DNA of 64,000 bases. It comes from Candidatus Bathyarchaeota archaeon. GTDB taxonomy: Archaea; Thermoproteota; Bathyarchaeia; Bathyarchaeales; Bathycorpusculaceae. The stretch spans positions 1-64,000 of the forward strand of contig CAVYXJ010000020.1 in the NCBI GenBank assembly GCA_963772455.1, in the 5' to 3' direction. Below the pieces are notes generated by a model, which was given only the letters and a program-made list of their open reading frames with translations, was not told the origin of the DNA and did not search any database. Positions 1-64,000 of this stretch are shown here, in pieces (the stretch's first letter is position 1; each line of letters opens with the position of its first letter). A program made the translations under genes and the position numbers.

Positions 1-450
1 TTGTTCAAATGTTGAGCCTCTTTCTGTCGCAATCTTGAATACGATTGGAGAACTACCAAAACTTTGCCAATTGCATGTTGCAATAACCTTCACATGATCA
101 TTAATGGGTATTTCGCCATTTATGTTGAGGGCATTTGTTATCGTTTGTCCATCGAAAGATCTAACTTCAAGATTCAAGCCATTGACATAAATTGCCTTGA
201 CATTTACAGGAAGTTTTCCCACATTGTAAATCCAGAGCTCCACTGTGTTACCACTGCTACCACTGCGGAACCATACGTCTTCTATTGTCAAAGACTCCTT
301 AATCGAACTTCCGATTCCAGCTTTGTAGCTATCAGAGTATGAAATCACAAACCCAAATAGAATCGTCATGCCAGCCATTGTTACTATTATCATCAATACG
401 GTGGCGATGACGGGTGAAACTGCTTTTCTGTTTCTAAATAGTTTCTTCAT
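1..450 (-). CDS. Archaeal type IV pilin-like protein (class III signal peptide); frameshift near 241, runs off window
   Basis: Manual translation from ATG at 450: MKKLFRNRKA|VSPVIATVLMIIVTMAGMTILFGFV (basic N-region, A|VSPVIA prepilin motif). After a 1-nt slip it continues ELWIYNVGKLPVNVKAIYVNG...FKIATERGSTFE. Not in the ORF track. Confidence 0.85.
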   Translation of the reverse strand, partial: MKKLFRNRKAVSPVIATVLMIIVTMAGMTILFGFVISYSDSYKAGIGSSIKESLTIEDVWFRSGSSGNTVELWIYNVGKLPVNVKAIYVNGLNLEVRSFDGQTITNALNINGEIPINDHVKVIATCNWQSFGSSPIVFKIATERGSTFEQ

Positions 451-454
451 TTTT

Positions 455-1306
455 TCACATCCAGTTGGGCGGTATACCTGCAAAGAATATGGCGTATCCA
501 ACTACGACCAGTAAGATTGAATGTTTCATGCCTCCAGCTACTCTGCGTTCCCCGATTTTTCCCGCCATCAATCCTCCTGTTAAACCTGAAACCAACATGT
601 CTTGATAGAAGAAATCCTTTAAGCCGCCCACTCCAGCAATGGTGGTAGTTGCTTGATATTTGCTGAGAACCAGACATGGGAGCAAAAAATGATTGCACCA
701 GCAGAATTGCTGTAACTATAAACACTGCAAAGGCCGCGTAAATTACTATTATGTAAGGTTTCATTTGGGCGTCGGTTTCCCTGTCGATATCTTTCATTTC
801 CTCCATGAACCCTGCAGTTGCTGTGAATACTTTTTTGATTGTTCCTCCTGATCGGCTTGCTTCCAAAACAAGCACACAGAAGCGGTTCACTATAGGTGAG
901 TTTATGCGATTTTTGAAATTGGTTAGTGCATCTTCAAAAGATGTGCCCCAGGACATTTCAATAACTAACTGCTTGACTTCTTTTGAAAGGGGGCCACTGA
1001 CCATTTTGTTGTCGACAACTTTTTCTAAAGCTCTAATTAAGGTCATCCCGGTTTCCTGAGATTCTGCAACTCCTCTAACTAGCAGAGGCATCTGGTTTTC
1101 TATTGAGGATATCCATCTTTGATGTTTCAAATCAAGAATAGCCGAAGGGACTAATATTACTAGTATGCTGACAAAAAAGATTTCATTGATATAAGTTGTT
1201 AATGCCGACGAATGATACGACAGCAATAATTGCTATAGCTACTAATTACGGCAAGTATCGAAAGCCCCACAGTTAATTGTCTTTTCTTAATTGCAACTTT
1301 GCCCAA
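455..1306 (-). CDS. Type II/IV secretion system F family (TadC/ArlJ-like) pilus platform protein; two frameshifts
   Basis: ORFs 447-1226 and 455-685 plus an upstream TTG at 1306 (MGKVAIKKRQ...). T2SS-F motifs GPLSKEVKQLVIEMSWGTSFEDAL, EASRSGG and GLMAGKIGE..VAGGMKH. Confidence 0.85.
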
Positions 1307-1311
1307 TATTA

Positions 1312-2179
1312 TTACCTCGGAGGTGTCATTGAATCGACCATTAGCAACATTATTCCTACACCTGCAGGTGTTACTATGAAGGTCATAAGTATCAAAACTG
1401 TTTGAGGATCCATACCAGCAAGCATTGATCCGCCGCCTAAGAATGACATTACGGAGAGCATAACTACAAGGACCAAGGGCAGTGCAATCATGAAACTAAC
1501 GTAGACTTCAGCCATTCCTGCAAGACTATCTAAGAAAACTTTTCATTGAAGTAACCCGAAGCTTCTTTGCTTTTTCAGACTCATCTCTAAGAAAAGACGC
1601 CAAATCGCCACCCATATGGGAAGTAGTAACAATGCCATCTAACATTGCACCAAACTTTCTTGAAGCAGACCTTACAGATGCGCGTCTCAAAGCATCGTTT
1701 AAATCCAAACCCATCAATTCGGTATCAGCAATTGCACGACGTATTTCTTCTCCAACCCCGAATTCATCGCCGACATTTGCTAAGGATCGAAAAATACGTT
1801 CGGGAGGCATTCCTGAACTTGCTAGTACAGCCATGAAATTGGCGGTTAAGGGCAAATTTGATTCTATCTTTCTTACCTTTGAAGAAATCGTGAGAACAGG
1901 GTAAACATAACAAAACCCAAAGACGGCAATGCCAGCGACCATCGCAGCTATTATTGAAAATACAAATGCAGGTACAACTGGAAGTCTAATTGAGAATATC
2001 AGTAGTGAAACTCCAAAGCCTAACACTGCGGCTAATATTGTGGAGAAGGCCATTAAGCCCAAGTAAGCTTCGAAGGTGATTTTAACGGCGGCTTTAGATA
2101 GATTATCCTGCATGCTCTTTAATTCTGTAACAAGAGATTGAGGAACAAACTTTGCGGTTCTAAGAAAGAGAGAAAGCAA
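1312..2179 (-). CDS. Type II/IV secretion system F family (TadC-like) protein; frameshift near 1525
   Basis: ORFs 1526-2179 and 1312-1515 join. IESNLPLTANFMAVLASSGMPP, GLDLNDALRRASVRSAS, MGGDLASFL, MAEVYVSFMIALPL. Confidence 0.88.
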
Positions 2180-2183
2180 CCGC

Positions 2184-3854
2184 TTATTCGTCTTTTAAAG
2201 CCTCCGCAAGTATGCGAGCAGGATTCTCCATATACGATCGAATTATGTTGGATACGTCTTTGTAATTTCGAATGCCCTTTTTAGCCATCCAGGTTATTAT
2301 TTTTCTTCTATTCTTGAGTTCTTCTTCAGCTTGCTCAATGCTTATTCCTGTTTTTTCAGCGATTTTCTCAAGAATGTAACTTCGACCAGTATAATCGAAT
2401 GTTTCATCAGTCGCGTTCCATCTGTATACTTCGTTTGTTAATATTTCTCCTGAACGAGGATCTAAACCAACGATTTCTGAGGCGGCAACAGTTTTTCTCA
2501 TGGGTTTGCCTTTTATTTCGACTCGTTTTTGAACCAATATGATGTCTATTCCAGCGATGAGAGTTCGAGGAATGTTCATTGGTGCTGATTCTAAACGGTA
2601 AACTGCTGATTCAACTGATTCAGCGTGAACTGTTGACATCCCAAGGTGTCCGGTGCTTACAGCTTGGAAAAGAGTGTATGCTTCTGTTCCTCTGATTTCA
2701 CCCACTATAATGTAGTCGGGTCTTTGTCTCAATGAAGCTTTCAGAAGATCAAATAATGTAACGTCTGCAGAGTCTGTGGCTATTCCAAAATGTGATCTGG
2801 TGGTAGCTGGAATCCAGTTTTCATGTGGAAGGTTAATCTCGGGGGTATCTTCGATGGATACGACTTTTAAGTCGGCTTTTATGAACATGCTTAGGCAGTT
2901 TAGAAGTGTAGTTTTGCCTGCTGCAATACCGCCAGCCACTAGGATTGACACTCGGTTTTCTACTGCATACCATAAGAAAGCAGCCATCTCCGCTGAGAGA
3001 GTGCCAAAAGTAATTAAATCGGTTACTGTGAATGGGTCAAGTTTGAATTTTCTTATTGTAAAAGTTGAGCCTCTACGTGTTACTTCTTTGCCGTAAGTAA
3101 GGTTGATTCTGCTGCCATCGGGAAGACTTGCATCTAATAGCGGTTGAGCTATAGATACGTGACTGCCACACATATATGCGAGTCGCAGAGCAAATGAGTC
3201 AAGTTCCTCTTCAGTCTCAAAACGAATGTTTGTTGGTATAGACTCGGACTTGCGATGCCAAACAAATATTGGAATATTAACTCCATCGCATGAAAGGTCC
3301 TCAATTAATTGGTCATGCATTAAGGAATCTATTTTTCCAAAACCAAGATTATCTCTAACAATACAGTAAAGCAGTTTACCTTGCGTTGCTTCATCTATCT
3401 TAAATTCGTAGTTATCAAAAATTTCTTTACTCTTCTCAACTAAGTATTTTCCAGCGGTCTCTTTTGATTGAAGATCCGATGGCTTTAGGGTTATTACTTG
3501 GTTGAGGATTTCTTTTAGCCGTTTAAGGTGGGCTTCATCTTCAATTGTGAGTTTTGGTTCATCAACCACGTATTTTATGTTTCCTCTGTCTAAATCCTTA
3601 ACAATATTCACATGACAATAAGGCTCAATAAGTGAGTAAGTTTCGAGGATTTTCTCGTTAACTGGTTCAGGGACTGATGTCACTATCTCAGGAACAGGAG
3701 TAACAGGAACAGTCGGTTTGCTTTTTTTAGTGAACAAAGATATTTTTCTGGAGGGGTGACCTTTTTTCTTCTCTATTTTTGTTTTTGAATCTAATTTAGG
3801 TTCCGAAACCTCTGCTGGTTTTTTTAGAGAAAACCGTTTCTTGTTAGATGTCAA
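2184..3854 (-). CDS. Type II/IV secretion ATPase (ArlI/TadA/VirB11 family), pilus assembly motor
   Basis: Walker A GGIAAGKTT, SIEDTPEI, LRQRPDYIIVGEIRG (Walker B), TGHLGMSTVHA (His box), LPDGSRINLT; Lys/Pro-rich N-terminal extension. Confidence 0.95.
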   Translation of the reverse strand: MTSNKKRFSLKKPAEVSEPKLDSKTKIEKKKGHPSRKISLFTKKSKPTVPVTPVPEIVTSVPEPVNEKILETYSLIEPYCHVNIVKDLDRGNIKYVVDEPKLTIEDEAHLKRLKEILNQVITLKPSDLQSKETAGKYLVEKSKEIFDNYEFKIDEATQGKLLYCIVRDNLGFGKIDSLMHDQLIEDLSCDGVNIPIFVWHRKSESIPTNIRFETEEELDSFALRLAYMCGSHVSIAQPLLDASLPDGSRINLTYGKEVTRRGSTFTIRKFKLDPFTVTDLITFGTLSAEMAAFLWYAVENRVSILVAGGIAAGKTTLLNCLSMFIKADLKVVSIEDTPEINLPHENWIPATTRSHFGIATDSADVTLFDLLKASLRQRPDYIIVGEIRGTEAYTLFQAVSTGHLGMSTVHAESVESAVYRLESAPMNIPRTLIAGIDIILVQKRVEIKGKPMRKTVAASEIVGLDPRSGEILTNEVYRWNATDETFDYTGRSYILEKIAEKTGISIEQAEEELKNRRKIITWMAKKGIRNYKDVSNIIRSYMENPARILAEALKDE

Positions 3855-3946
3855 CTCAACGATGCCCCCTCATACATGATCACTCTTCATTTATAAACTA
3901 TGTAAACAAAAAAATAGAAAAAGAAATGACTCAAAACAATCCACGC

Positions 3947-4419
3947 TTATAACGATTGTGAATTGCTGAGTTATTTGGCTGAAAGTTCCGTCTGTAGTTG
4001 TAACTTTGATAGTTACAGATTGTACGCCAGCTGTCAGATCTAAAGCTGTTGCAGTGCAATTGTCACTGTAGCTGCCTTTGCGTTAAAGTATTGCGTTGGA
4101 GTCGTCCAAGTGCCGGATTAGCTACTGCACCGTTTACGAACACACTGTTAGTAGCTGCTAAGCAATTCAACATCTGAATCGCCAACGTTCTGAACATAAA
4201 CTGTGAATATGTCATCAGTAGTTCGCAGCAGTATGATACACTTTGGATTTGTATTGCTTTGCCTGTTTTCTCTGTTGTGAAGTTCATGTATCCCATGACC
4301 CAAGCGTAAGTAACCAAGGATGCAACGACTGCGATGGCTATCATTAGTAGAGTTGCAATTACTGGTGAGATTGCACGTGCGTTTCTACGGAACTTTCTTA
4401 TTGTTTTTCCAAAATTCAT
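3947..4419 (-). CDS. Archaeal type IV pilin (probable major pilin); frameshifted, 3' end approximate
   Basis: MNFGKTIRKFRRNARA|ISPVIATLLMIAIAVVASLVTYAWVMGY. Other frames give VYVQNVGDSDV and SVTIKVTTTDGTFSQIT, typical pilin strands. Lies directly upstream of the ATPase. Confidence 0.9.
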
Positions 4420-4665
4420 TTTTTTATTCTCCCTTTTGATTTCTTGAACCTTTATTGTCTAATGCAGACTTAAAAGCATAATGGAATAATCTTCTACCAG
4501 ATACCGACATATATCAATGACAGCATAAATATTTTGCAATCATTCAACTATTATGATAAAAACCTTGGCAAGAAAAACAAAACTTGAACCTATAATCCAT
4601 ATTTGAATGCTACAAAAGATATAACTATGCAACATCTATTTCTTAGCCAAAAGGGTTAACCTTTC

Positions 4666-5322
4666 ATGAAAACTGTAAAGACTGCGATTGCTGGCCTTGA
4701 CGAATTCTTAATGGGTGGAGTGCCCCCAAAAATCATACTTTTAACGGGTTCGCCGGGTTCAGGAAACGAAGTTTTTGCAAGACAAGTCTTGTTTAACCGA
4801 GTAAAAACGTGCCCAGTCACATACTTTACAGTTAACGTGTCAGCTGAGAGCATTCGAGAGGATATGGCAGCTTATGGATGGGACACTGTGCCTTGTGAGG
4901 AAGCTGGAGCATGGAAATTTAAAAGCCTTAAAAATAAAACATCAAGCGAAATGTTAGAAACTGTTTTGGAGGAAATGAAACAGTGCAGAACCATCGCTAT
5001 TGACTCTGCCTCAGAGCTTTTGCTTATCCACAAAATCAAAGATGTAGCTAACCTAGTAACAGCCATGACACATCAGAATAGAAACAGCCAAAATTTCCAT
5101 CTGCTGCTTACAACAGAGGGCATGCAAGACCCTCAAGCCGAAGCCACCTTGAACCATTTTGCCGAAGGCTCAATATACTTCGCACTTACATGGTCAGCAG
5201 ACTCAACTATGAGGCACCTAATTATTAGGAAAATGTCAGGAACCATAATCCCCACAAGAAGACTCACCTATACCCTGGGCAGAAAAGGATTCATCATAGA
5301 AACAGCAACAAGAATCACATAA
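4666..5322 (+). CDS. Single-domain KaiC/RecA-superfamily ATPase with degenerate Walker A
   Basis: VKTAIAGLDEFLMGGVP, LTGSPGSGNE (GKT replaced by GNE), IAIDS, RHLIIRKMSGT, KGFIIET; KaiC/ArlH-like layout. Confidence 0.85.
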   Translation: MKTVKTAIAGLDEFLMGGVPPKIILLTGSPGSGNEVFARQVLFNRVKTCPVTYFTVNVSAESIREDMAAYGWDTVPCEEAGAWKFKSLKNKTSSEMLETVLEEMKQCRTIAIDSASELLLIHKIKDVANLVTAMTHQNRNSQNFHLLLTTEGMQDPQAEATLNHFAEGSIYFALTWSADSTMRHLIIRKMSGTIIPTRRLTYTLGRKGFIIETATRIT

Positions 5323-5556
5323 CCCACACCCCAAACATCTTTTTGCCTATAACTAAATTTGTGTGCAAAACGCAAAATTGCCTTTACAAGCTATGTCATT
5401 GTCAGTTACTCATCAGCAAATAACTAAAATATCCCAAAAGTATCGAGTTAGTTTAGCCTATGCATTCGAATAAGATTTCATAAATTCTTAATGGATAACT
5501 GATTAAACTTTTTATTTGAAACCAAGAATTTTTAGCTTGAAATTCCTTAACCAAAT

Positions 5557-6420
5557 TTAAAGGTTGAGGTCTTTGTCAATTGCGTCTAGTATTTGGCCAT
5601 CTACTTTTGGATTGAATTTGCGTGCGAAAAAGTAACCTCCTCGTTTTAAGACAGGGTAGTCTTTTATGGTTAGGATCCTGGGGTGTGAATCTATGAAGGA
5701 TACATATCTTTTATTGTCGTTAACTATTCTGTTCTTAAATTGGCTGTTCATGAGAATTGTTTGGAAGAACATTTCACCCGGCGCGAAGACATGTTCATAG
5801 AAGTTTATGACGCTAGGGTTCTTTTCCACAAATTGATCGATATAGCTCACAAATTGCTTTGGCAAGGTGAACCAATTCCATCCGCCGTAAGGTTCTAAGT
5901 GGCAGGGCAATTTTCGTCTTATTCGGGGGATTCGAAGTATCCGTACATAAGGGTATTCTTTCTTGTGGAAAAAGTAATGATTATTGTTTATCCTGTCCAT
6001 TCCACCAAGGTGCCATCCTTTGTATGGCAGTTTCCAAAATGTCATAAAACCCGAAGTTTTGCTTCTAAGCTCATCTCTTATTTGTTGGGGTGTTTTAAGT
6101 GGATAGCAATCCCCAGTTAGATTAAACAAGTAATCATAGTCGTATTTCTCGAAATGCTTCATTGCATTGAGGGTTGATGCAGTGAGCCCGAATGAGCCCC
6201 ATCTACAACAAAACTTTGACTCAACCTTAACATTCGTGTATCCAATTTCCGTGTTTATCAGTTGTTTCCATTCAAGAAATTTTTCTTTGCCAACAGATTT
6301 GTCTATATGAATGTAGAAATAGTCTATAGGTGTAAAGAGCCGTTTCACTAACCGGATTGTTCTTTCTGGTTCTTCATAAATTGTTATACAATAAGCAAAT
6401 TTAATTTTTGTAACCTCCAT
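5557..6420 (-). CDS. Core-2/I-branching beta-1,6-N-acetylglucosaminyltransferase family (GT14-like)
   Basis: AYCIT.Y, FYIHIDK, RWGSFGL, NLTGDCYPLK, YGGWNWFTL, PGEMFFQTIL, FFARKF. Confidence 0.85.
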   Translation of the reverse strand: MEVTKIKFAYCITIYEEPERTIRLVKRLFTPIDYFYIHIDKSVGKEKFLEWKQLINTEIGYTNVKVESKFCCRWGSFGLTASTLNAMKHFEKYDYDYLFNLTGDCYPLKTPQQIRDELRSKTSGFMTFWKLPYKGWHLGGMDRINNNHYFFHKKEYPYVRILRIPRIRRKLPCHLEPYGGWNWFTLPKQFVSYIDQFVEKNPSVINFYEHVFAPGEMFFQTILMNSQFKNRIVNDNKRYVSFIDSHPRILTIKDYPVLKRGGYFFARKFNPKVDGQILDAIDKDLNL

Positions 6421-6447
6421 TCTGTTGACCGTGTGTGATTTAGTCAG

Positions 6448-7419
6448 TTAATAACCCACTTTTTTGTTCACGGTATTTTTCACAGGTTTATTGGTCATAT
6501 ATAATTCTAAATTTTGTAAAAAAGAATCTGTTATACGTTCAAGATAGAAGTTCGATTGACCTGCAATGTGAGGTGTGATTATGACGTTTTTCATTTTCCA
6601 GAGTTTGGAGTTTTCGGATAAAGGTTCTTCTTCGAAAGTGTCCAATCCCGCACCCGATATTTTATGTTCTTCTAAGGCAGTGATTAATTCATTTTCTATT
6701 ATGATTTTTCCCCTGCTCACATTAATCAAATAACTCGTGTTTTTCATATATTGAAACTGGTCTTTTCCAAAAAGTCTTAACGTTTCCTTGGTTAGCGGAG
6801 CAGTTATGATAACAAAGTCTGATTCTTCTAAAAGAATAGGCAAATCTTCAACTGGGATAAGCTTGTCGACGTAATCAATTTTTTGTGAATTAAAGTTCTT
6901 CTTTGAAGCTATTATTTTCATACCCAAATGCTTGGCTTTCTTTGCAGTTTCGGAGCCTATTTTACCCAATCCCACAATTCCCAAAGTTTTTCCAGAGAGT
7001 TCTTCGCAGATTCCCTTTGTGAATCCTCCATAGCGCATCCATTTTTTCTTGGATTGGTTTATGGTGAATAAAGACATTCGTCTACAAAAAGAGAGCATAA
7101 GTAAAATGATATGTTCTGAGACAGGTGTTGCAAAAATGTCTCCAGCATTAGTGATTACAATTGGGCTTTTCACTACGTCTGGAAAAAGGAATTTGTCAAC
7201 CCCTGCACCTGTAGTTTGAATCCATTTTAGTTTTTTAGCCTTCAAAAATAATTCCCGCGAAAAGAATCCAGCAAATAATATTTCAGCATCATCTATTAGT
7301 TGTAGTAATTCAGTCTCATCGCAACTCTTCCTTACCTCAAGTTCCTGAGAGATCGCCTTAATTTTATTTATGAAAGGAACGGGCAAGTCAAATGCGACGA
7401 GTATTTTTGTTTTTTTCAT
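6448..7419 (-). CDS. D-2-hydroxyacid dehydrogenase (NAD-dependent)
   Basis: GAGVD, GIVGLGKIG Rossmann motif, INVSRG, LDTFEEEPL, ITPHIAG. Confidence 0.93.
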   Translation of the reverse strand: MKKTKILVAFDLPVPFINKIKAISQELEVRKSCDETELLQLIDDAEILFAGFFSRELFLKAKKLKWIQTTGAGVDKFLFPDVVKSPIVITNAGDIFATPVSEHIILLMLSFCRRMSLFTINQSKKKWMRYGGFTKGICEELSGKTLGIVGLGKIGSETAKKAKHLGMKIIASKKNFNSQKIDYVDKLIPVEDLPILLEESDFVIITAPLTKETLRLFGKDQFQYMKNTSYLINVSRGKIIIENELITALEEHKISGAGLDTFEEEPLSENSKLWKMKNVIITPHIAGQSNFYLERITDSFLQNLELYMTNKPVKNTVNKKVGY

Positions 7420-7446
7420 TTACATTATCATCTTTTTAGGCAAGCT

Positions 7447-8263
7447 ATGCCTTTGTATCCAAATCGATTAATAAGTAAGGTGGTTACTTTGAAGTTTTTC
7501 CTATTTAACACTGATTTGGAATTGGCACTGAGAGCAGAGAAAGCAGGCATTGATAGTATTGTTGTTGATTGGGAGTTGAAGGGGAAAGAAAAAAGACAAC
7601 AAGGTTACGATTTAGAAAAAAATACAGACACCCCTCAGGACGTACGCATTTTGTCTAGCCATTTGAAGATTCCTGTAACTGTTCGTATCAACTCTTTGTG
7701 GAAGAACACATCGGTGGAGGTGGAGACTGCTATTGAAAACGGTGCGAAAAATATTATGTTGCCCATGGCAAAAAGCGCAGATGAAGTCAAACAATTCTTA
7801 TCTGATTGTCAATGGACGCGCTAAAAGCATTGTGCAAATAGAAACCCCCCAGTTGGTTGAACAACTTGCGGATTTTAAGGATTTAGACTGGGATATTGCG
7901 TATATTGGTTTGAATGATTTGATGGTTGCTAGTGGGCGTTCTTCTATTTGGGAGGCCTTGGCTGACGGAACTGCTGAAAAAATTTGCAGGGGTTTGCATG
8001 GTCGAGTGTATGGTTTTGGAGGATCCACAATTTTGGGCGGCGGGGAGCCAATTATCAATGTTTTGATTCTTCACGAGATGATTCGGCTAGGAGCCAGTGT
8101 GACTATTATGCGGCGTACTTTTAAGCGGGAGTTATTAGATCGTGATTTGAACGCCGAAATTGAGGTTTTAAGGGCCTTTATTAGCAGTAGTGAGAAGCGG
8201 GGTGAGCAAGCCATTTTATTCGATCGAGAACATTTAGTCAGGTTCATACATAATTTGATTTAG
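7447..8263 (+). CDS. HpcH/HpaI aldolase / citrate lyase family protein; frameshift near 7800
   Basis: ORFs 7447-7824 and 7733-8263 join. AGIDSIVVDWE, VRIN, IMLPMAKS, VQIET, YIGLNDL, YGFGG. Confidence 0.82.
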
Positions 8264-8522
8264 CCTTTTTTCCTAACCATTCAATAAATTATATCCAATC
8301 AAGCCCCTTAGCCATCTACTCTACTTCAGAGTTGGCGCTTACCCACAGACTTCAAGATGTAGCTAACTGGGTAAATACTGGAAAAATCAGCATTACAGAT
8401 AAAAATTAACCGGAGCAGCCAAGAAATAAAAATCCAAAATTGAACCAGGTATTTTTCAATAGTCAGAATTTCAAAAAAATAGATATTATGAGAGAATTTG
8501 TTCTTCTTTAATATAATGACAT

Positions 8523-9430
8523 TTAAACGGGATTTCTTTTTTTCTTCATTTTCTCACTAAAGATTATTGCCAATATTATTAAAATGATGATAACATCAAC
8601 AGTGTAGATTACTATAACAAGAAGTAATGCTAATGTCAACATTGAATTAGTCTGATTTTCTACTGAAAGTTGAATCGTGAAAGTTGACGGATCTGTTGTC
8701 GGTGAGCTACTTATTGTTGCTATGGGGGTTGATGTAGGTGTAATGGTGGGAGTGGCTGTTGGTGCGGGTTTTGGTGTGGCAGTTGGACTTGATGTTGGGA
8801 TGGCAGTTGGTGTGGGTGTTTCTGAGGTGTTGGAGAAGGAGTTGCTGTTGGAGTTGGCGTTGGTGATTCAGTGGGTGTTGGTGTTGGACTTTCTGTTGGT
8901 AAAGGTGTAGCGGTTGGAGTAGGCGAAGGGGTTGGAGTTGGAGCAGGTTGTACTTGGTAGATGTAAATCTCGATGTGACAATAGTTGTTGGAAATGTCTT
9001 GATCTATCCAGTCATATACTTGAAAAGTTATCGGCGAACCAGTTCCAACATACGCAATTGAGTATGTGTGATTAGTATCTGCGTTGCTAAATGATCCCCA
9101 ATTCACGTCAGTTCCGTTGATAAGTAAAAACGAGTGACCGTTTGGTGCTGGTGAATTGTTAGTCCAATTCCAATCTGAATTATCTGTGCAATAATATTGT
9201 GCATCTGCTTGAAGACCGCCAGAGTAGTTGTACCAGAAAACAGTTGAAGCAACGATACGATATTCCGTACCTAAGACTAAGGTTGGAGTTGTGACTGCTG
9301 CGCCAGTTGCACTGTATGCGTTATCTGTCCAAAATAGGGATTCTTGAGCGTTGACTTCAGTTCCTGAAATTACTGCAATTGTTAATAGAAGAATCGTTGC
9401 GGCGATTAGGTAAACATATTTGTTTTTCAT
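8523..9430 (-). CDS. Secreted/surface protein: signal peptide, beta-rich (LecA-like?) domain, Pro/Thr stalk, C-terminal TM plus basic tail; frameshift near 8822
   Basis: ORF 8720-9430. After the slip the PT stalk continues to ...MLTLALLLVIVIYTVDVIIILIILAIIFSEKMKKKRNPV* (stop 8523-8525). Confidence 0.8.
8826..8880. repeat. 55-bp perfect inverted repeat, copy 1 (partner 13524-13578)
   Basis: Reverse complement caacacccactgaatcaccaacgccaactccaacagcaactccttctccaacacc is identical to 13524-13578. Confidence 0.9.
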
Positions 9431-9625
9431 TGAAAGTTACTCGAATAGAACTTTTCGAATTCATTATTTAAATATTATTTATTAATAATCAATATTAACT
9501 ATAAGCAGAAAAAACCCCAACAAACAATCAATCCCAAATTCAAAACCTCACCAGAATGCAAAAATCAAAATTTTTTTCCAACTACACTTTTGAAATATAA
9601 AAAACATCAGTTGTATTTGATAATA

Positions 9626-9832
9626 TTATATAAAGCGTAAAGCAATTGTAACTAAAAAAGCAATCCCGCATCCGATGCCAACTATTCTTAGTCTTGTTTT
9701 ATCAATATGCATTTTGCTTGAATATTCTTGTGAGACACCAAGAAATACGGAGGTAACAAGAATCACTATTGCAATAACAGCTAGCAATATACTAATTTCT
9801 GTTAACGTTAAGGGAAAGATCATATAAATCAC
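9626..9832 (-). CDS. Small two-TM membrane protein
   Basis: Two hydrophobic segments; overlaps the stop of the upstream gene (operonic). Confidence 0.7.
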   Translation of the reverse strand: MIYMIFPLTLTEISILLAVIAIVILVTSVFLGVSQEYSSKMHIDKTRLRIVGIGCGIAFLVTIALRFI

Positions 9833-11466: not shown

Positions 11467-11474
11467 GAAATAGT

Positions 11475-12113: not shown

Positions 12114-12244
12114 GCTCTTAATTCTTGCTGCAGCCTTGTGACTTTATTAATACAAGTTTACCCACTGTTATTAAAAGCATTATTCTGCAATCAAAAAAGA
12201 GGTCTTGGAGAATGGCACAATATCGCGAGAAATAAATAAGTAAC

Positions 12245-18004: not shown

Positions 18005-18025
18005 TTTTCCCTGCTATATGAATCG

Positions 18026-51416: not shown

Positions 51417-51925
51417 TCACCTTAGGCTTCATATGAAGTTGTTTTCTCAAATGAGCATGCTTAAGTTTGCGCCAAACAAAAAACAATAATATCCCGAATA
51501 TTATTGAGCCAGCAATGCTAAAAATTAGAGTAAAAAATACATTAATCTGTGAGTTACTTAGGCTTTCATTTCGCAGAATAACAGCGTCAGCATTAACCTG
51601 ATCTGCTATCTGATGAACATTTTTCAAAATCGATGTAACGTTTTCTAAATTACCACTATTGTATTTGTTTTGAGCTTCGGATAAAAATTCGCCTGCAATA
51701 TTTAGTTTTACTAAGAGTTCGCTGATGTCTGCACCAGCTTTTTCAGCATTTAAAACAGAGTTGAAAGCTTGTTTCAGTGCATCATTAGTTGTCTGAAAAT
51801 TCAATATGGTCTGATCGGTTTGAGCGAAAACAAAACGTTCATCATTAAAAAAAGATCCTAAAAAAACAAATACAAATAATGTTAAAACAAGATATCTGGA
51901 AATAAACCTTATTTTTTGAAGCCTC
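51400..51925 (-). CDS. Hypothetical exported helical protein with C-terminal TM; start uncertain
   Basis: ORF 51400-51804 (AFNSVLNAEKAGADISEL...TM). The frame is open upstream through a signal-like segment (RYLVLTLFVFVFLGSF...VFA). Confidence 0.65.
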
Positions 51926-53392: not shown

Positions 53393-54529
53393 TTATTGAT
53401 CGTTTATTTGAAGCCATTGTCTTCTCAAAAACTGTGGAGTTGGTATTGCCCAATTCGTTTGTTTTTTTATCCCGCTAAATATGGTATTGAATTTATTTAC
53501 TGTGAACGTTTGGATATTTTTAGGGCTTGATAAGACAATGGGGGCATTCAAAGCTTGTGCGCCAAATCTCTTTTTGAAAGTCTTTACACCATCAAGTCCA
53601 GCGCTTGGATTAAAATCAAACCAAGTATACCCTTTTTCGCATGCATGCTTGATAAGTTCGTAATATAGGAGGTTTGTCGGTCTAAGATTTAAGAAGTTTT
53701 CTAAAGATGCACCACTCCAAGCAACAAAATGTTTTTCAGAATGGAAACAAAGTGACCCCGAAATAACTTTATCTTGATAAGTGGCTAACCAGAGTTCGAT
53801 ATTAGGTGAATTCCTCAGGAAGATTTCGTGGAAAAGCTCCCAAGAATATTTTTCGCTTACTAACTGTTTTCCCCATCTGGTAACAGAGGCTTCATAGAGT
53901 TTATAATAGTCCAGCCAATCTTCAATTGAATTTGAGATTCTAACTGATACTCCATTTCGACTTGCATTTCTTACAGCCCTTTTATTCGAGTTAGACATGT
54001 TGGGCACAATTACATCAAATCCTTTTTCCAAATTGATTGCATGGGTCTCATCTTCAGAGCTGATTCTTATGTTGGATTTTGAGAGTGTATCATCGTAAGG
54101 ATTTAATCTCCAAGATAGAGGACCAAATTTCTCAATTATCAGATTTGAAAGTAAAATTGAATGATTAATATCTAGATTATTAGCTGAAATCCAGCCGCCG
54201 TAAGTATACTCAGGAGACGAAATATAAAATTTTCTTACGCCCATTAAATTTGTAGCTAAGCTGTCTTTAGTTAAACAAGAAAAAGGCAGCAAAGCCCTTT
54301 TACCATCAGAGAACAAAACAAGAAAAGGTGTTGGTGACATTCTTCCTTTAGTGTATTTGCTCCATATTTCAGCCCATTCCCTAGAATGAAAATATGTGGA
54401 AAAATGACATTCTTTCCAAATTTTGTCCCATTCAGATATGGAAGCAATACGAACATTTGTTATTGAAATGTTTTTTTGAACTAATTGTTTGGGTTCAACA
54501 TGTAACTCAATTTGGGGGTTTGCCAACAT
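53393..54529 (-). CDS. GNAT superfamily protein (FemAB/Acetyltransf_6-like)
   Basis: TYFHSREW, TYGGWI, RAVRNASRNGV, RPTNLLYYELIKHACEKGYTWFDFNPS, GVKTFKKRFGA. Confidence 0.85.
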   Translation of the reverse strand: MLANPQIELHVEPKQLVQKNISITNVRIASISEWDKIWKECHFSTYFHSREWAEIWSKYTKGRMSPTPFLVLFSDGKRALLPFSCLTKDSLATNLMGVRKFYISSPEYTYGGWISANNLDINHSILLSNLIIEKFGPLSWRLNPYDDTLSKSNIRISSEDETHAINLEKGFDVIVPNMSNSNKRAVRNASRNGVSVRISNSIEDWLDYYKLYEASVTRWGKQLVSEKYSWELFHEIFLRNSPNIELWLATYQDKVISGSLCFHSEKHFVAWSGASLENFLNLRPTNLLYYELIKHACEKGYTWFDFNPSAGLDGVKTFKKRFGAQALNAPIVLSSPKNIQTFTVNKFNTIFSGIKKQTNWAIPTPQFLRRQWLQINDQ

Positions 54530-55003: not shown

Positions 55004-55459
55004 TTATGCTGTGGTTCCTGAGATTAGTATTTGTACGCTGAAATTTGTTATGTCAACTATGCTTGATGAAGATGTCAATGTTATGATTGCTGTGGTTGAT
55101 TGTCCTGGTGAAAGTCTTGTGCCTTCTTTATCCCAGCTTATTGTTATAGGTCCATTTGCATTAGTTGGTGTCCAATTGCTTGTTGAAAGGCTCAATGTTA
55201 ATGATGTGCCAGATCCTGTGTTTTTGACATAGACTGTTTTAGTTATGTTGTTGCCTGCTGTTAATGCTCCCCAATCAAGTGATGCAAGACCTGTAGTGCA
55301 GCTGCTGTCAGAGTATAGGCCTAAGTTTGGTGTTACATTGATTGAGCCGTTGGTGACTAGACTTTTGTTGACAGAGATTGCTCCGTAGGTTGTGGCGGAT
55401 AAGGCTATGGCTACAAGTGTTAGGGCGAATACTGATATTGGGATTTTGCGTTTGGACAT
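55004..55459 (-). CDS. Small secreted Ser/Thr-rich beta protein (TasA/bundling-pilin-like?)
   Basis: Signal peptide ending TTYG; LDWGALTAG, VYVKNTG, LSPGQS; own promoter region. Confidence 0.7.
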   Translation of the reverse strand: MSKRKIPISVFALTLVAIALSATTYGAISVNKSLVTNGSINVTPNLGLYSDSSCTTGLASLDWGALTAGNNITKTVYVKNTGSGTSLTLSLSTSNWTPTNANGPITISWDKEGTRLSPGQSTTAIITLTSSSSIVDITNFSVQILISGTTA

Positions 55460-58102: not shown

Positions 58103-60019
58103 GTGGAAAACGAAGAAAAATTTCAGCTTATAACAAATTCTGTTAAAGACGCCATTATTTTAGTTGATGAAGAATCAAAGGTAGCCTACTGGAATCCAGC
58201 GTCAGAAAAAACTTTTGGTTACACCAGTAAAGAGGCAATCGGTAAAAAAATACATGAACTTGTAGTTCCAACTTCAATGTGCCAAGAAGGACGCGATCGA
58301 ATTGAACAAAGCGTGAAGATTTTTAATGAAACTGGCATGGGTTACTTCACTGTTGGAGACGTAGAGTTAATTGGTCGCCACAAGAATGGGACCGAATTCC
58401 CAGTGGAATTATCAATTTCACCTATAGAGTTATCGGGTAAATGGAACGCCGTTGGGGTAGTAAAAAACCTTAGCGAGAGAAAAAAAAGTGATCAGAAAAC
58501 AAAAGAGGCTGAACAACGTTACCATGCTTTATTTAATCAGTCTCCTTTGGGAGTTTTGATTGTTGATCCAAAAACCTTGGGTTTTGTTGAATTCAACGAT
58601 GTTGCTCATCAGCAATTAGGGTATAGCCGAGAAGAATTTGAAAAGTTAACATTAATAGATATAGAAGCTAAAGAATCTGAATATCAAGTAAAGTCTCATA
58701 TTGCCAAGATGCTCAAGGATGGCAAAGAAGAGTTTGAGACCGAACACCAAACAAAAGATTGCCGCATTAAGAATATTTTGGTTAGTACAAGAGCTATAGA
58801 AATGAAAAATAGAAAATTGCTCCACTGCGTTTTTCACGATATAACTGAGATTAGAAATACACAAAAGTCGCTTATGGAAAGTGAGGCGCAATATCGTAAT
58901 TTAGTTGAGCTTGCGCAAGAGGGTGTTTGGGTATTTGATAAGGAATATAATACAACGTTTGTGAATCCTCGTATGGCTCAAATGTTGGGTTATGTTCAAA
59001 GTGAAATGCTCGGTAGGAGAGCTTTTGAGTTTTTGGACGCAAGTGTTGTTGAGCAAGCAGAGAATTTCCTTGGCAAATACGAATCGGGTCTGAGTGGTAA
59101 TTTTGAGTATGAGATCAACCGGAAAGATGGATCCCGAATTTATGCAAGCATAGTGGCTTCTCCTATTAATGATGATCAGGGAATTTATATTGGGACTCTT
59201 GCTCTGGTTGCAGACGTTACTTTGCGAAAAGATATGGAGAAAAAGTTAGAGAAATATTCTAAAAATCTTGAGGAAATAGTTCAGCAAAAAACCAGTCAGC
59301 TTGCTGATGCTCAAGCTCAAATAATAAAGTCGGAGAGGTTAACTGCTATTGGCGAATTAGCTGGAATGGTGGGGCATGATCTTCGCAATCCTTTAGCGGG
59401 CATTAAAAACGCTTCTTACTTCTTAAAAAAGAAGGAGACGCAAGGTTTGTCTGCTCAGTCTATAGAAATGCTTGAAATAATCAACCGATGCGTTGAACAC
59501 TCTAACAAAATCATTAATGACCTTTTGGATTATTCTAGAGAAATGCGTTTGGATAAAAAAGAAACTTCAATTGATAAACTGCTTATCCAGACTTTAGCTA
59601 TGGTTCAAATTCCAAATAAAGTGACTGTAGTAAAAAAAGTTCCAGGTTCATCTAAATTGATGGCTGATCCGGACAGGCTTGAACGTGTCTTTATTAATTT
59701 AGTAAAGAACGCTGTTGACGCAATGCCTGATGGAGGGGTAATTTCGATTATCTGCAGGGAAGAGAATAACTATTTAGAACTTTCCTTTACTGATACTGGA
59801 ATGGGAATTCCTGATGAGGCTTTGCCAAAGCTTTTCTCGCCTTTGTCAACTACAAAAGCGCAAGGAATGGGTTTTGGTTTAGCGATATGTAAACGTATCG
59901 TGGAAGCTCATGGGGGAACTATTGGTTTTAAGACCTCTAAAGGGAAGGGCACAACTTTCACAGTTACATTGCCAGTTGAAACAGCGCAGAAATTGGAGGT
60001 GAAAATGATTGAACAATGA
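58103..60019 (+). CDS. Cytoplasmic sensor histidine kinase with three PAS domains
   Basis: PAS motifs WNPASEKTFGY, FNDVAHQQLGY, VNPRMAQMLGY; H-box VGHDLRNPL; N-box NLVKNAVDAM; DTGMGI; GMGFGLAIC. Confidence 0.95.
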   Translation: MENEEKFQLITNSVKDAIILVDEESKVAYWNPASEKTFGYTSKEAIGKKIHELVVPTSMCQEGRDRIEQSVKIFNETGMGYFTVGDVELIGRHKNGTEFPVELSISPIELSGKWNAVGVVKNLSERKKSDQKTKEAEQRYHALFNQSPLGVLIVDPKTLGFVEFNDVAHQQLGYSREEFEKLTLIDIEAKESEYQVKSHIAKMLKDGKEEFETEHQTKDCRIKNILVSTRAIEMKNRKLLHCVFHDITEIRNTQKSLMESEAQYRNLVELAQEGVWVFDKEYNTTFVNPRMAQMLGYVQSEMLGRRAFEFLDASVVEQAENFLGKYESGLSGNFEYEINRKDGSRIYASIVASPINDDQGIYIGTLALVADVTLRKDMEKKLEKYSKNLEEIVQQKTSQLADAQAQIIKSERLTAIGELAGMVGHDLRNPLAGIKNASYFLKKKETQGLSAQSIEMLEIINRCVEHSNKIINDLLDYSREMRLDKKETSIDKLLIQTLAMVQIPNKVTVVKKVPGSSKLMADPDRLERVFINLVKNAVDAMPDGGVISIICREENNYLELSFTDTGMGIPDEALPKLFSPLSTTKAQGMGFGLAICKRIVEAHGGTIGFKTSKGKGTTFTVTLPVETAQKLEVKMIEQ

Positions 60020-60449
60020 AACTAGAATACTAATTGTTGATGACGATGACACCATAAGATCTACCATGAAAGCAATTCTTGAAGATGAAGGATACGAAGT
60101 TGATTTAGCTGCAAGTGGAAAAGAAGGCGTACAAAAAGCAAAAGACACATCCTACAATATAGCTCTCTTAGACATCCGATTGCCCGACATGGAAGGCGTA
60201 GAACTACTAAAACTCATGAAACCCGCCGTACCTAGAACCCGAAAAATAATGGTAACAGGATACCCCTCAACGCAAAACGCTATAGAAGCTTTAAACAAGA
60301 ATGCAGACGCATACCTGATAAAACCTGTAGATATCGAGAAACTGCTTAACACAATAAAAGAGCAGTTGAAGTTGCAGGAAGAAGAAAAAAGCTTCAATGA
60401 AGAAAAGGTAGCTGAATTTATTGAATCTCGAGTCAAAGAAATTATCTAA
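60009..60449 (+). CDS. Response regulator (stand-alone receiver with short helical tail)
   Basis: ILIVDDD, LLDIRLPD, MVTG, YLIKP; overlaps the kinase stop. Confidence 0.95.
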   Translation: MNNETRILIVDDDDTIRSTMKAILEDEGYEVDLAASGKEGVQKAKDTSYNIALLDIRLPDMEGVELLKLMKPAVPRTRKIMVTGYPSTQNAIEALNKNADAYLIKPVDIEKLLNTIKEQLKLQEEEKSFNEEKVAEFIESRVKEII

Positions 60450-61139: not shown

Positions 61140-62355
61140 CTATCTTTTTTTTACGCCCATAAATTTATTTAGGAAGGATTTCTTTTGTGTTTTATCCTGT
61201 TTTGGTTGTTGATCAGAGGAAGAAACTTTGGCTTGTTTTGTTGTTTCTAAGTTCTTTTCAATTTCGCTCTTTATTCGCGCTATTACTTCTGGTTCTTCGA
61301 TTGAGCCTTCAATAAGTAGAATGTTATGACCTTGTGCAATTTTCTTGGCAGTTTCATTTAGTTGGGGAATGGCAACAAAAATTGGAACATCGACGTTGAC
61401 TTCGGAAGTTTTGTATAGATACAAAATTATTGGCGATGTAGCAACTTCGGTTTCACTCACTGCATGATCTAATGCAATAACCTTTTCTTGTCCATCTATT
61501 AGTTTCTTAGCAATTAGACTAAAATGATGTTGCATTCCACTTTTTTGACCGAATACTAATCCAGGAATTTCAACGCTGAATCCTAAATCTGTTAGAAGAT
61601 TTTGAATATTTTCTAAGCTTTCTACGTTTTGCCTAATTTCTTTTCGTCGTTGCAGGTTTAATGAGAATTTTGGTATATCAATAACTTGAGCTTCTTTTAT
61701 CGTGAAGTTTTTATTGCAGCTTCTGCAGACTAGGTCAAACTCGGGATTTTCAAATTTTTCGCTGCATTCTTGACATACATACCAGCGTCCCATGTTTCTG
61801 TATTGACGTTCAACAAGGACTTCTCCACATTTGGGACATGTATCATTAATGTACTTGTCTCTTTGGTCGATGTATCCGCAAGGAATATGTTCGGTTAAGC
61901 TTGTTTTGTTAACGTTGTGGCTTTTACATTTTGGACATCGATTGTGTAATGTAAGGAGTGTTGATTGACAATTTGGACATATTGAAACTGAATCAAAGAA
62001 AGTTTTTTTGAGTATGCCTAGTTGCGCGAGGTTTTCTAAAGTGGTTTTTGAGAGTTTATCTGTTTCGGCAATATTTAATGTGCTAATAGTTGAATGATAT
62101 TCGAATCCTAAGCCTGGATTGTATTTGGGAATTATTTCTACGTTATTTCCATCTTCGAGTAATCTTCTTAGGAGGTCGCGCGTTTGGGGTTCAATATATG
62201 CTCCTCTTCTCTCCTAGTTCTATTTTGTCTTCTTGAGAGATAGTCTTTGCTACTTCAGTATTTTTTTCTGCACCAATTTTTTCCTTTGGCTGCTCTGCTA
62301 TCTTTTTTGGATCGGTTTTTTGTTGTTGATTTTTCATTTCTTTAACGACGTCCAT
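61140..62355 (-). CDS. TackOD1-like multi-zinc-ribbon protein with C-terminal restriction-endonuclease-like (Mrr-type) domain; frameshift near 62214
   Basis: Frame open upstream of the tracked ORF: CPNCQS...RCPKCKS..V.K.SLTEHIPCGYID...CPKCG...YVCQEC...VCRSC; C-terminal GQKSGMQHHFSL; ATG at 62355. Confidence 0.78.
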
Positions 62356-62389
62356 TTTGATTATCTATTTGTATTTTATATCGGTTTGT

Positions 62390-63220
62390 TTAACTAAGGA
62401 ATAAATAGAATGCTATTCCTGAAGCTATTGATAATATTGTTACGTGTTTTAACCCGTCGATGAATGAGTCTTCGTTGATTTTTCCCGCGATTAATCCTCC
62501 GAAGAGGGCTTCGATCAATGAGGCATGAAGAAATAGTCGTCTTGATGCTTCTTGGGATATTATGGGTTTAATAAAAGATACGCTGCCTGCGCCAGTTTGA
62601 CTCAAGGGAGTAAACATCATGTTGGAAATGATGATAATTATGAATAGAAACATGAAGACTGAGAAGTAGAAATATTAAAACATAAGGTGTGGTTTGTTGT
62701 CGTCTTTTTGCTGTCCAAGAGTTAATGCTATCAAGGTACTTTGCTGTGGAGTCAAAGATGTTGGATAGGTCGCCTCCGTGTTTTGCTGCTTCATTGATCA
62801 GTACAGTTGCTTTTTTGATTAGGGGTAAATCTATTCTATTACCTAATTCGTCTAGAGCATCGTTGAAGTTCATGCCCCAACTCATGTGAGCAACTAATAG
62901 TTTCAGTTCGTAGGTTAGTGGACCGTAGATTCGGTTTGAAGCGTGTTCAAGGGCTACTTGCAGGGGTATTCCTGTTCTTGATGCAGTTGCTAAGTCTCTT
63001 AGAAAGTCGGGAGTTGCTTTTTCAATTTTGATTTTCCAGCGGTTATGAATTATGCTTGCTATGCTTGGAGGTAAAACGCCTATTGTTAGATGCTATTACT
63101 ATCATGTAGTCTAATGTGGGGGATGTTAGATAGAAAACTGAGGCAATAACGAAGAAGAATATGGCTGCAGCTGCAGAAATGATGGATATTCGTTTCATGG
63201 TCTTTTTTGGTTACTTTCAT
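62390..63220 (-). CDS. Type II/IV secretion system F family (TadC-like) protein of a second pilus locus; several frameshifts
   Basis: IEKATPDFLRDLATASRTGIPL, YGPLTYEL..LVAHMSWGMNFNDAL, EAAKHGG, GGLIAGKINEDSFIDGLKH. Confidence 0.85.
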
Positions 63221-63228
63221 ATTTGCTC

Positions 63229-64000
63229 TCACTTTTCGAATGTTGACATTATTACCATCATTATTGCACCCATTATGGGGATTCCAAGGTAGGTTAGCAA
63301 ATAGAGAATTAGTGACATGCTAAAGCCTCCAAATGAGCTGCTGCCTATCATACCTAAGGTAACGAAGAGCACTATGAATAGTAGTGGAGCGGCGACTAGC
63401 ATCATAATGTAGATTTCTGCCATTGCTGAGAGTGATTCTAGCATCATGTCTAGTTTACCTATTCGCTCTTTTGTCACGGCTTCGGTTGTAATTTTTAGGT
63501 ATTCTGTTGGGTTTCCTCCGGTTCTAACTGTAGCTACGTAGCCTTCGAGAATTTCGCCAAGTTGATCATTGGGTGTTAGTTTGGCGTTGTCAACAATTGA
63601 ACTTAGAAGGTCTCCGCCAAAGACTTCTACATCTCTTATTATATTGCTAAATTCTAAGCGTACTTCTTTGAGGGTATCAATTTTGGCCATTGATTCGAAA
63701 ATAATACTTGGTGGAACGTTTGAGCTTGAAAGAAGAGTTAGAAAATTGCTTACATATGGTAAGTTTCTATCGATTGGTCCTTTTCTACTGCTTGCTTTCA
63801 TACCTGGATAAAGGTACATTATCATTAGTGTTATCAGCGCTGCTGAGGCTGCAATTACTAAACTAAATGATAAATTCAATATCTGATAGTAAGGGAATAC
63901 CGCTTAGAAGTGGCAAGAGAATGAAATGCTATGGGGATTGTGGCTGCAAAAACAATTATCGAGGTTAATATCATGAAGGCGATGTATGCTTTGAATGCGA
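63229..64000 (-). CDS. Type II/IV secretion system F family (TadC-like) protein, 5'-truncated by window edge
   Basis: IDRNLPYVSNFLTLLSSS, FGGDLLSSI, TGGNPTEYL, LSAMAEIYIMMLVAAPL; paralogue of 1312-2179. Confidence 0.88.

Follow-up and report, generated by a model that had tools for sequence, protein, structure and literature searches.

What do Bathyarchaeia build with some 50 kb of glycan genes set between two pilus loci: one integrated adhesion and exopolysaccharide system, or a surface coat that is exchanged from strain to strain? The question is raised by the first 64 kb of contig CAVYXJ010000020.1 (C20; 88,753 bp) of a Candidatus Bathyarchaeota archaeon, the whole of which stretch we call the window; the genome bin to which it belongs (2.45 Mb, 24 contigs) is 92.4% complete, with 3.4% contamination. 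A sequence-only reading of this DNA had proposed the integrated system. From Pfam and NCBIfam scans, inspection of N termini and hydrophobicity, and comparison with relatives, we instead favour, with a probability of roughly 0.6, a strain- or species-specific, low-GC (guanine plus cytosine), replacement-type flexible glycosylation island of about 47–55 kb, lying in a plastic region between two Epd/Tad-like pilus loci. Because the window starts where its contig ends, the bracketing by two pilus loci depends on one contig only. Gene content, folds, synteny and variability are what the analyses reported below show.

The roughly 50 kb of glycan genes that had been noticed between the pilus loci, Wzx included, were found at about 5.5–54.5 kb. 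This low-GC block contains ten genes for glycosyltransferases (GTs) of families GT2, GT4 and GT14 (five GT2, four GT4, one of them a weak match, and one GT14), together with two DegT genes, RmlD, four methyltransferases, an APH-type kinase and DUF1616 proteins. The GC content of the island is mostly 0.33–0.37, that of the large contigs 0.39–0.41, a level that two 2-kb bins inside 23392–52684 also reach; C20 as a whole has lower GC and lower coverage by open reading frames (ORFs) than the large contigs. Scans of the window revealed no tRNA, integrase or transposase. From left to right, the block holds the following features, with the strand given where it was assigned.

5557–6420: GT14 (Pfam).
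5557–16693: left part of the island, with a 2-hydroxyacid dehydrogenase and a split HpcH aldolase (7447–8263) in addition to the genes listed.
8720–9430: secreted protein with a Pro/Thr tail.
9829–12113: membrane protein (545 aa) and DUF1616 protein.
12245–13894: anchored PQQ-type propeller.
15269–16693: anchored metallophosphoesterase.
16903–23391, minus strand: frame-broken block with DegT, two ATP-grasp, metallophosphoesterase, radical SAM and aldo-keto reductase genes in pieces.
23392–52684: core glycan cluster, every frame intact (Pfam and NCBIfam), with methyltransferases, APH kinase, GT4, DegT, GT2 genes, RmlD, DUF1616 pieces and proteins without assignment in addition to the core genes listed.
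25825–27906: LamG and metallophosphoesterase protein of the core cluster.
29490–31091: Wzx flippase (PF13440, PF01943 and the MOP flippase model).
38622–40319 and 45757–46965: secreted proteins of the core cluster.
40697–42265, minus strand: predicted glycosyltransferase of GT-C fold with 13 transmembrane segments (AF2 model and Foldseek).
51965–52684: AglJ/DPM-like GT2 (TIGR04182, 148.5 bits, cut-off 325; NF041391, 103.5 bits, cut-off 375).
53393–54529, minus strand: FemAB/GNAT-like acyltransferase (PF13480, 7.9e-16; TIGR03019, 2.9e-19, 69 bits, cut-off 260).

Even at E values up to 5, Pfam gave no useful match for the proteins at 14388–14990, 23392–24327, 35923–37122 and 45757–46965. The DUF1616 proteins (9829–12113; 50817–51804) and the membrane or coiled-coil pieces adjoining them recur in every related island examined (G008:C13, G001:C8 and G023:C10); the DUF1616 stretches of the window may be split genes.

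The steps that the block encodes, and those that it lacks, bear on what it makes. No Wzy-type Pfam family was found on the ORFs of the window, and PF04932 (Wzy_C) has no match in the genome, although a very divergent Wzy is possible. Families for a priming phosphoglycosyltransferase, for chain-length control and for export had no match in the window, and PF02397 (Bac_transf) had none in the genome. The oligosaccharyltransferase AglB (STT3, 761 aa) is encoded by a single gene at C10:313378–314508 and is absent from C20, as the first reading had stated for the window; directly beside it, at C10:311740–312204, lies the only PF00953 copy of the genome (AglH-like, 296 aa). This pair (C10:311485–314676) is flanked by DNA polymerase B, topoisomerase and RsmB genes, a housekeeping context. 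The DPM-like GT reported earlier corresponds to the GT2 at 51965–52684, which resembles AglJ and dolichol-phosphate hexose transferases at scores under the model cut-offs. A flippase, a dolichol-phosphate-type GT2 and an outer-face GT-C enzyme are encoded here, whereas genes for a primer, a polymerase or an exporter were not found; archaeal protein glycosylation accounts for such a set better than a Wzx/Wzy polysaccharide does.

The GT-C assignment concerns the protein encoded at 40697–42265, which has no Pfam match even at E 5. An AF2 model built with 42 homologs (pLDDT 75.5, pTM 0.78) was compared with known structures using Foldseek, and every one of the best 33 matches listed was a GT-C enzyme (TMq 0.36–0.50; E <= 0.001 for 11), from the families AftA, DPY19, STT3/PglB/AglB, ArnT, ALG9/12 and AftB/D. 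The top match was AftA (8if8; E 1.1e-4, TMq 0.50). Across the 42 aligned sequences D94 is invariant and D35 nearly so, which makes them candidates for the acidic residue that GT-C enzymes conserve in their first outer loop. The model thus supports a GT-C fold in a family without a Pfam model; of the earlier description of this protein as ‘GT-C/Wzy-like’, the first half holds by fold, whereas nothing in the Wzy searches backs the second. The family comprises 210 proteins at E <= 0.001, and its Atlas clusters are unnamed and archaeal (Bathyarchaeota, Thermoplasmatota, Methanobacteriota). As a weak lead, DUF2206 is found on 10% of the members of one of these clusters. With the window protein as query, the family was detected in 7 of 24 genomes of the same genus and in none of 16 genomes of other genera. 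In all four islands examined (the window, C1, G008:C13 and G001:C8) the GT-C gene lies 10–20 kb from an AglJ-like GT2.

If the block is a flexible island, its surroundings should be conserved and its content should not. We compared the KaiC-side neighbourhood of the left-hand pilus locus (pilus 1) in 16 relatives (G010, which is also L020, G016, G040, L018, L019, L022, L023, L024, L025, L027, L028, L029, L030, L037, G020 and G008), leaving out L021 and L026, which have no sequence on that side, and L031–L036, in which the ATPase is 56–57% identical and no KaiC ortholog was found. Pilus 1 adjoins glycan genes in three of the 16: L028 (RmlC, APH, Wzx), L029 (radical SAM, two GT2, Wzx) and G008:C13. 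In three others (L023, L024 and contig C149 of G020) it lies 3–13 kb from a second pilus locus, and in the remaining ten it stands beside large secreted proteins or unrelated genes. The conserved ends and variable glycosyltransferase interior expected by the first reading were therefore seen, but linkage of glycan genes to pilus 1 in only 3/16. The short distance between the pilus loci in L023, L024 and G020:C149 indicates that the two ends of the island belong together.

Where glycan genes do follow pilus 1, they differ. Next to the same KaiC gene, L028 (in which the ATPase is 98% identical), L029 and G008:C13 carry other glycan sets, and the Wzx proteins of L028 and L029 share just 36% identity with the one encoded in the window. 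G008:C13 has a colinear island of about 30 kb, with GT2, DUF1616, GT-C (42%), GT4, AglJ-like (55%) and DegT genes, and it contains a pilin-like gene at 12702–12869. The most similar island, G001:C8 (AglJ-like 74%, DegT 71%, FemAB 63%, GT4 54–59%, GT-C 39–51%, Wzx 37%), has no pilus genes in the 60 kb examined. The right flank behaves alike within the bin itself: C20:51977–88753 is colinear with C1:36739–2313 at 77–97% identity, and C20:80406–88753 matches C4:16160–24501 at 98%, C20 and C4 both ending within this shared 8.3-kb piece. Past the shared AglJ-like GT2, C1 carries another glycan set, made up of a polysaccharide deacetylase, a GFO/IDH/MocA oxidoreductase, a GlpA-like flavoprotein trio, three GT4, one GT2 and a broken GT-C homolog (36–39% identity); the FemAB-like gene is absent from its copy of the right flank. 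This duplicated 37-kb segment, in two or three versions at 77–98%, represents either co-binned relatives or a large duplication.

Recruitment of metagenome contigs (>=88% likeness; four runs from four studies, X1–X4; first 20 kb of the window) gave a summed depth over 1–5336 of 20–270 in X1, X2 and X4 and of 1–12 in X3, and over 5337–20000 of about 0–13 in all four runs. The stretch at 16.7–24.4 kb has a match of any kind in 13 of 41 genomes, in short pieces, the best of which is 715 bases at 71% identity. Three properties by which flexible islands are recognized were thus found: conserved flanks that are adjacent where the island is missing (L023, L024, G020:C149), different gene sets of the same function at one site (L028, L029 and G008:C13, and the right flank on C1), and recruitment below that of the flank (four runs, first 20 kb, contigs).

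We suggest that the island would act as follows. Soluble GT2, GT4 and GT14 enzymes would build an oligosaccharide on dolichol phosphate, and the products of the aminotransferase, reductase, methyltransferase, kinase and acyltransferase genes would tailor its sugars. The Wzx/AglR-like flippase would then turn the glycan outward, while the AglJ/DPM-like GT2 would make a dolichol-phosphate sugar that the enzyme of GT-C fold would add on the outer face. Transfer to surface proteins would fall mainly to the single AglB encoded on another contig, and the likely targets are pilins, the envelope and the secreted proteins encoded by the island. Exchanged as a block between conserved flanks, the island would give related cells different coats.

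In the Agl pathway of Haloferax volcanii, AglJ and AglD, AglR, AglS and AglB have defined roles, and the window resembles that pathway in its putative dolichol-phosphate GT2, soluble GTs, MOP-type flippase and predicted outer-face multi-pass transferase, and the genome in its AglB; it differs in that AglB and the AglH-like protein are encoded on another contig, the AglJ match lies under the cut-off and the GT-C enzyme has no Pfam model. Flexible islands rich in GT genes occur in marine ammonia-oxidising archaea, as one report describes (10.1101/2024.04.23.590705), and second N-glycosylation clusters vary among close Haloferax relatives according to a review (PMC11407970). The window shares with the island fGI1 of the former and the cluster of the latter a large, GT-rich, low-recruiting block of variable content with conserved flanks and no mobility genes seen. 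It differs from both in belonging to soil Bathyarchaeia, in lying between two pilus loci, and in its secreted-protein genes, its GT-C enzyme of an unnamed family and its frame-broken segment.

The left flank of the island is pilus 1, whose genes had been recognized at this end by the first reading and were confirmed here.

1–501, minus strand: type IV pilin, truncated by the contig end (Pilin_N, 24.1 bits; TIGR02537, 20.4 bits, cut-off 20; N terminus ...RKA/VSPVIATVLMI).
447–1232, minus strand: second platform gene, one T2SSF domain (TadB/TadC-like; PF00482, 1.4e-17), frame-broken.
1312–2179, minus strand: first platform gene, one T2SSF domain (PF00482), frame-broken near 1531, in pieces 1526–2179 and 1312–1542.
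2184–3854, minus strand: assembly ATPase (T2SSE; PF00437, 6.5e-43), intact.
4063–4419, minus strand: short type IV pilin, 118 aa (TIGR02537, 35.6 bits; N terminus ...RNARA/ISPVIATLLMI).
4666–5322, plus strand: KaiC/FlaH-like secondary ATPase of the pilus module (PF06745, 1.4e-22).

Both pilins have class III signal peptides, with TIGR02537 scores over the cut-off and N termini that were inspected directly. The assembly ATPase gene adjoins the platform genes, and the locus also encodes a FlaH/KaiC-like second ATPase, which still stands next to the pilin gene in 12 of the 20 related loci. Each pilus locus of the window has a contiguous pair of platform genes with a single T2SSF domain apiece, though both pairs are frame-broken; the pilus-1 orthologs in G010 are intact, adjacent ORFs of 288 and 282 aa with one T2SSF domain each. 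The FlaI model scored 425.8 bits on the ATPase, under its cut-off of 550, and PF01917 (archaellin) gave no match in this genome of 92% completeness. Judged from its genes, pilus 1 is of Epd/Tad-like organization, which bears out the earlier analogy with Tad pili: paired one-domain platform genes, an assembly ATPase, a FlaH/KaiC-like ATPase and short pilins are likewise the features of Epd-like archaeal and bacterial Tad pili as described by Denise et al. (PMC6668835). It differs from them in its frame-broken platform genes and in that the only prepilin peptidase gene of the genome (PF01478), the sole candidate for the dedicated EppA-type peptidase of such pili, lies on C4, outside the locus. 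The same ATPase served as a taxonomic check and agreed with the original guess of a bathyarchaeal host, as the relatives in which it is 85–98% identical are all titled Candidatus Bathyarchaeota or Bathyarchaeia metagenome-assembled genomes, and in Bathyarchaeia from hot springs its identity is 56–57%.

At the right end lies a second pilus locus (pilus 2), preceded by a kinase module.

58103–60019, plus strand: histidine kinase with three PAS domains (Pfam).
60009–60449, plus strand: single-domain response regulator (Pfam).
61140–62213, minus strand: TackOD1-domain protein, open over 358 codons, 5′ end lost (Pfam; ortholog in G001, 398 aa).
62390–64000, minus strand: two pilus-2 platform genes, two frame breaks each, with T2SSF pieces at 62390–63879 (Pfam; orthologs in G001 intact).
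C20:64115–65753, beyond the window: pilus-2 ATPase, broken.

Pilus platform genes are thus present at this end, as had been read from the sequence, along with a TackOD1 gene, but the ATPase falls outside the window and the pilus genes are frame-broken; in G001 the orthologs are intact (platform proteins of 274 and 293 aa, ATPase of 543 aa). The TackOD1 frame at 61140–62213 has no internal stop, and the domain scores 2.2e-24 in the L024 ortholog. A KaiC-like gene for pilus 2 was not found. The series of kinase, response regulator, TackOD1, two platform genes, ATPase and downstream genes is preserved in G001:C6 and G012:C1, with every gene intact and in the same order, but is rearranged in G023:C10 and partial in G020; on the kinase side, the relatives with this module carry non-glycan genes, except for one GT2 in G023. 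As kinase and regulator stay in line with TackOD1 and pilus 2 in G001:C6 and G012:C1, where they have no glycan genes as neighbours, we assign the signalling module to pilus 2. The PAS kinase module of the earlier reading is accordingly present at 58103–60449, but by synteny it belongs, with TackOD1, to a conserved pilus-2 module and not to the glycan cluster; its proteins probably control the second pilus. In a study of thaumarchaeal type IV pilus loci, TackOD1 is a response-regulator output domain (PMC5847659). Pilus 2 has in common with those loci a TackOD1 gene directly next to the genes for platform and ATPase and, adjoining it, genes for a kinase and a receiver; it differs in its bathyarchaeial host and in the receiver, which forms a protein of its own with a single domain.

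Two side observations concern the surroundings of this module. In G001:C6 (L043), a T4 gp19-type tail-tube gene (PF06841, 2.3e-41) lies at 1636–2133, 3 kb from the kinase of the pilus-2 module, and may belong to a contractile-injection or prophage element. Beyond the window, C20:64–88.7 kb carries a TFIIB-like gene, Ig-like (Invasin_D3) proteins, a PadR gene, a second PQQ propeller, PIN, Lrp and SnoaL genes, a presenilin-type protease and a beta-CASP/RNase-like gene in three pieces.

The secreted proteins had been central to the idea of a matrix. Seven modular ones had been counted; we find 8–10 secreted or anchored proteins, with starts at 8720, 12245, 14388, 15269, 25825, 38622, 45757 and 55004. 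Among them are the PQQ-type propeller and two metallophosphoesterases, of which one contains a LamG/ConA-like domain, as well as proteins whose Pro/Thr/Ser stalks are very long and a 151-aa Ig-like protein. Sequons are denser in the secreted proteins (44 in 3555 aa, 1.24 per 100 aa) than in cytoplasmic ones (55 in 7577 aa, 0.73 per 100 aa), a weak hint at N-glycosylation. The proteins at 45757–46965 and 14388–14990 share a C-terminal domain with the motif ...PGDHIV.S.WIKTS... and no Pfam match, a possible lectin-like module that in the former is preceded by some 170 aa of Pro/Thr/Ser stalk.

The following small protein is probably the one that the first reading called TasA-like.

55004–55459, minus strand: secreted or anchored Ig-sandwich protein, 151 aa (model pLDDT 81; six N-X-S/T sequons).

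Its model consists of an N-terminal helix and a seven-strand sandwich, and it belongs to a common bathyarchaeial family of about 150 aa with 127 homologs. Foldseek returned nothing at E <= 0.001 for this model (the TasA-like match had E 0.026), and a VIA full fold scan placed PapD/MSP/ASH-type Ig domains first (Z 8.3–8.6); the archaeal pilins that resemble TasA came lower, 7ueg at rank 38 and 9p0a at rank 40 (Z 6.2 each). The TasA/camelysin family PF12389 (Peptidase_M73) had no match genome-wide in a search whose control found Bacillus subtilis. The protein shares with TasA/AbpA matrix fibres (PDB 7ueg) that it is a small secreted beta-sandwich protein, but with PF12389 absent and generic PapD/MSP folds outscoring the TasA-like pilins we regard it as a generic PapD/MSP-type Ig sandwich and not as a demonstrable relative of TasA.

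Frame breaks affect many of these genes in the assembly. They hit the two platform genes of pilus 1, the platform genes and ATPase of pilus 2, TackOD1, HpcH and six or more genes at 16.9–23.4 kb. The split of HpcH is read only from the overlapping ORFs 7447–7824, which has a partial HpcH_HpaI match, and 7733–8263. At 16.9–23.4 kb, DegT is found in four colinear pieces covering profile positions 8–348 of 360, and ORFs of >=150 aa cover 0.15–0.47 of the block, compared with 0.83–0.89 in neighbouring sequence. Alignment with the G010 ortholog places +1 insertions in the second pilus-1 platform gene (447–1232) at ~1242, ~1208 and 648, and related metagenome contigs from four studies omit exactly one base at 648, 1209/1210, 1244 and 1531–1535. 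Of the 15 breaks that could be located against intact orthologs, every one is an insertion of a single base and none a deletion: four in the pilus-1 platform genes, seven in the pilus-2 ATPase of C20 (two of which fall in its poorly aligned N-terminal part) and four in the copy of that ATPase on C1 (C1:23350–24990), which is also frame-broken. Genome-wide, stops occur in 0/30 ABC_tran matches and 1/26 GT2 matches, no gene is broken at 24–50 kb, and related bins have similar splits, either in ATPase 1 (L028, G003) or in ATPase 2 (L023).

Natural decay favours deletions. The insertion-only, patchy pattern in strongly scoring genes leads us to prefer consensus error in strain-mixed parts of the assembly over old pseudogenes, at odds of about 60:40. 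Frameshifts shared by C1 and C20 were considered as proof of true decay and dropped, as the breaks coincide only at alignment column 347 and perhaps at 92, too few to decide. An alternative genetic code was also dropped: the breaks are changes of frame and not one recurrent stop codon.

How do other explanations fare on the same evidence? In the integrated system of the sequence-only reading, pili, a Wzx-dependent exopolysaccharide, lectin-like secreted proteins and the kinase would jointly build a biofilm. All types of part do lie on one contig, Wzx among them, the FemAB-like gene is similar to an XrtA/PEP-CTERM-associated family (2.9e-19), the secreted LamG/ConA-like and propeller proteins bring long Pro/Thr stalks, and glycan genes adjoin pilus 1 in some relatives. 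Yet that reading itself had looked to conserved linkage, which is absent from 13 of the 16 relatives, the other three having other gene sets; the closest island, G001:C8, has no pilus gene within the 60 kb examined; and the kinase goes with pilus 2 in G001 and G012, where no glycan genes adjoin. With Wzy, priming, chain-length and export genes not found in the window, Wzy_C and Bac_transf at zero in the genome, the TasA call failed and pilus 2 frame-broken on both C20 and C1, we regard such a system as unlikely. Equally unlikely is an island dedicated to the glycosylation of pilins or filaments, in which the GT-C enzyme and the lipid-sugar synthase would decorate the neighbouring pilins as in bacterial TfpW-type systems. 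The constant pairing of a GT-C gene with an AglJ-like GT2 in the four islands agrees with it, as do the islands beside pilus 1 in L028, L029 and G008 and the pilin-like gene within the last. In the window, however, 36 kb separate the GT-C gene from the closest pilin gene, the two pilins carry 0 and 1 sequons, and about 40 genes far exceed what pilin modification needs; moreover, G008 is the single one of the seven same-genus genomes with the GT-C family in which the gene lies about 20 kb or less from a pilus-1-type ATPase.

The juxtaposition could also be unreal, the product of a chimeric or mis-binned contig. C1 and C4 do duplicate parts of C20 at 77–98%, the bin has 3.4% contamination, the frameshifts are local and insertion-only, and C20 departs from the large contigs in GC and ORF coverage; but the junctions were seen independently, between pilus 1 and pilus 2 (L023, L024, G020), between pilus 1 and glycan genes (L028, L029, G008) and between the right flank and glycan genes (C1), and none of the 30 ABC_tran matches in the genome has stops. 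We therefore hold an artefact to be very improbable. More room, though still little, is left for a functional origin of the recurrence beside an Epd-like pilus, in which the GT-C family of soil Bathyarchaeia, fed by the AglJ-like synthase, would glycosylate pilins and Pro/Thr-stalked lectin-like proteins extracellularly without AglB and, together with a kinase-controlled second pilus, form a strain-specific adhesion or recognition coat. If such a coat is real, archaea would have their own equivalent of the pilus-linked GT-C glycosylation systems of bacteria.

Several points weigh against the flexible glycosylation island that we favour. With the window included, 4 of 17 genomes have a glycan island beside pilus 1, a recurrence that could reflect function and not a recombination hot spot. 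Two co-binned organisms may be the source of C1 and C20, which leaves replacement within one population a candidate process. By analogy with AftA and EmbB, the GT-C enzyme could extend a polymer, making a capsule-like product possible; the FemAB-like gene resembles, at a score under the cut-off, a family tied to bacterial exopolysaccharide loci, and the AglJ assignment too lies under the cut-offs. Screens by tblastn used window proteins at E < 1e-6 or < 1e-8 and could have missed divergent glycan genes in G016 and G040. The frame breaks may put the functioning of parts of the region in doubt. Finally, we infer the glycan, its lipid carrier, the order of steps, the targets, the regulation and the link between AglB and the island.

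We found no description of this layout of bathyarchaeial pili, matrix and glycosyltransferases in the literature searched, which did not include subscription journals. Islands of this kind, strain-specific and swappable rather than fixed biofilm machinery, are already known from marine ammonia-oxidising archaea and haloarchaea. In bins like this one, consensus errors may account for gene breaks, and calls of ‘pseudogene’ in variable regions need reads. Of the cell surface of Bathyarchaeia, a largely uncultured group that abounds in soils and sediments, essentially nothing is known; islands for swappable sugar coats are usually read as a response to viruses and as a means of cell–cell recognition. 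If the flexible-island reading is right, Bathyarchaeia would carry such an island as haloarchaea, marine ammonia oxidisers and many bacteria do, and the window also yields a conserved pilus module with its own probable two-component control and an unnamed family of GT-C enzymes that is amenable to bench testing.

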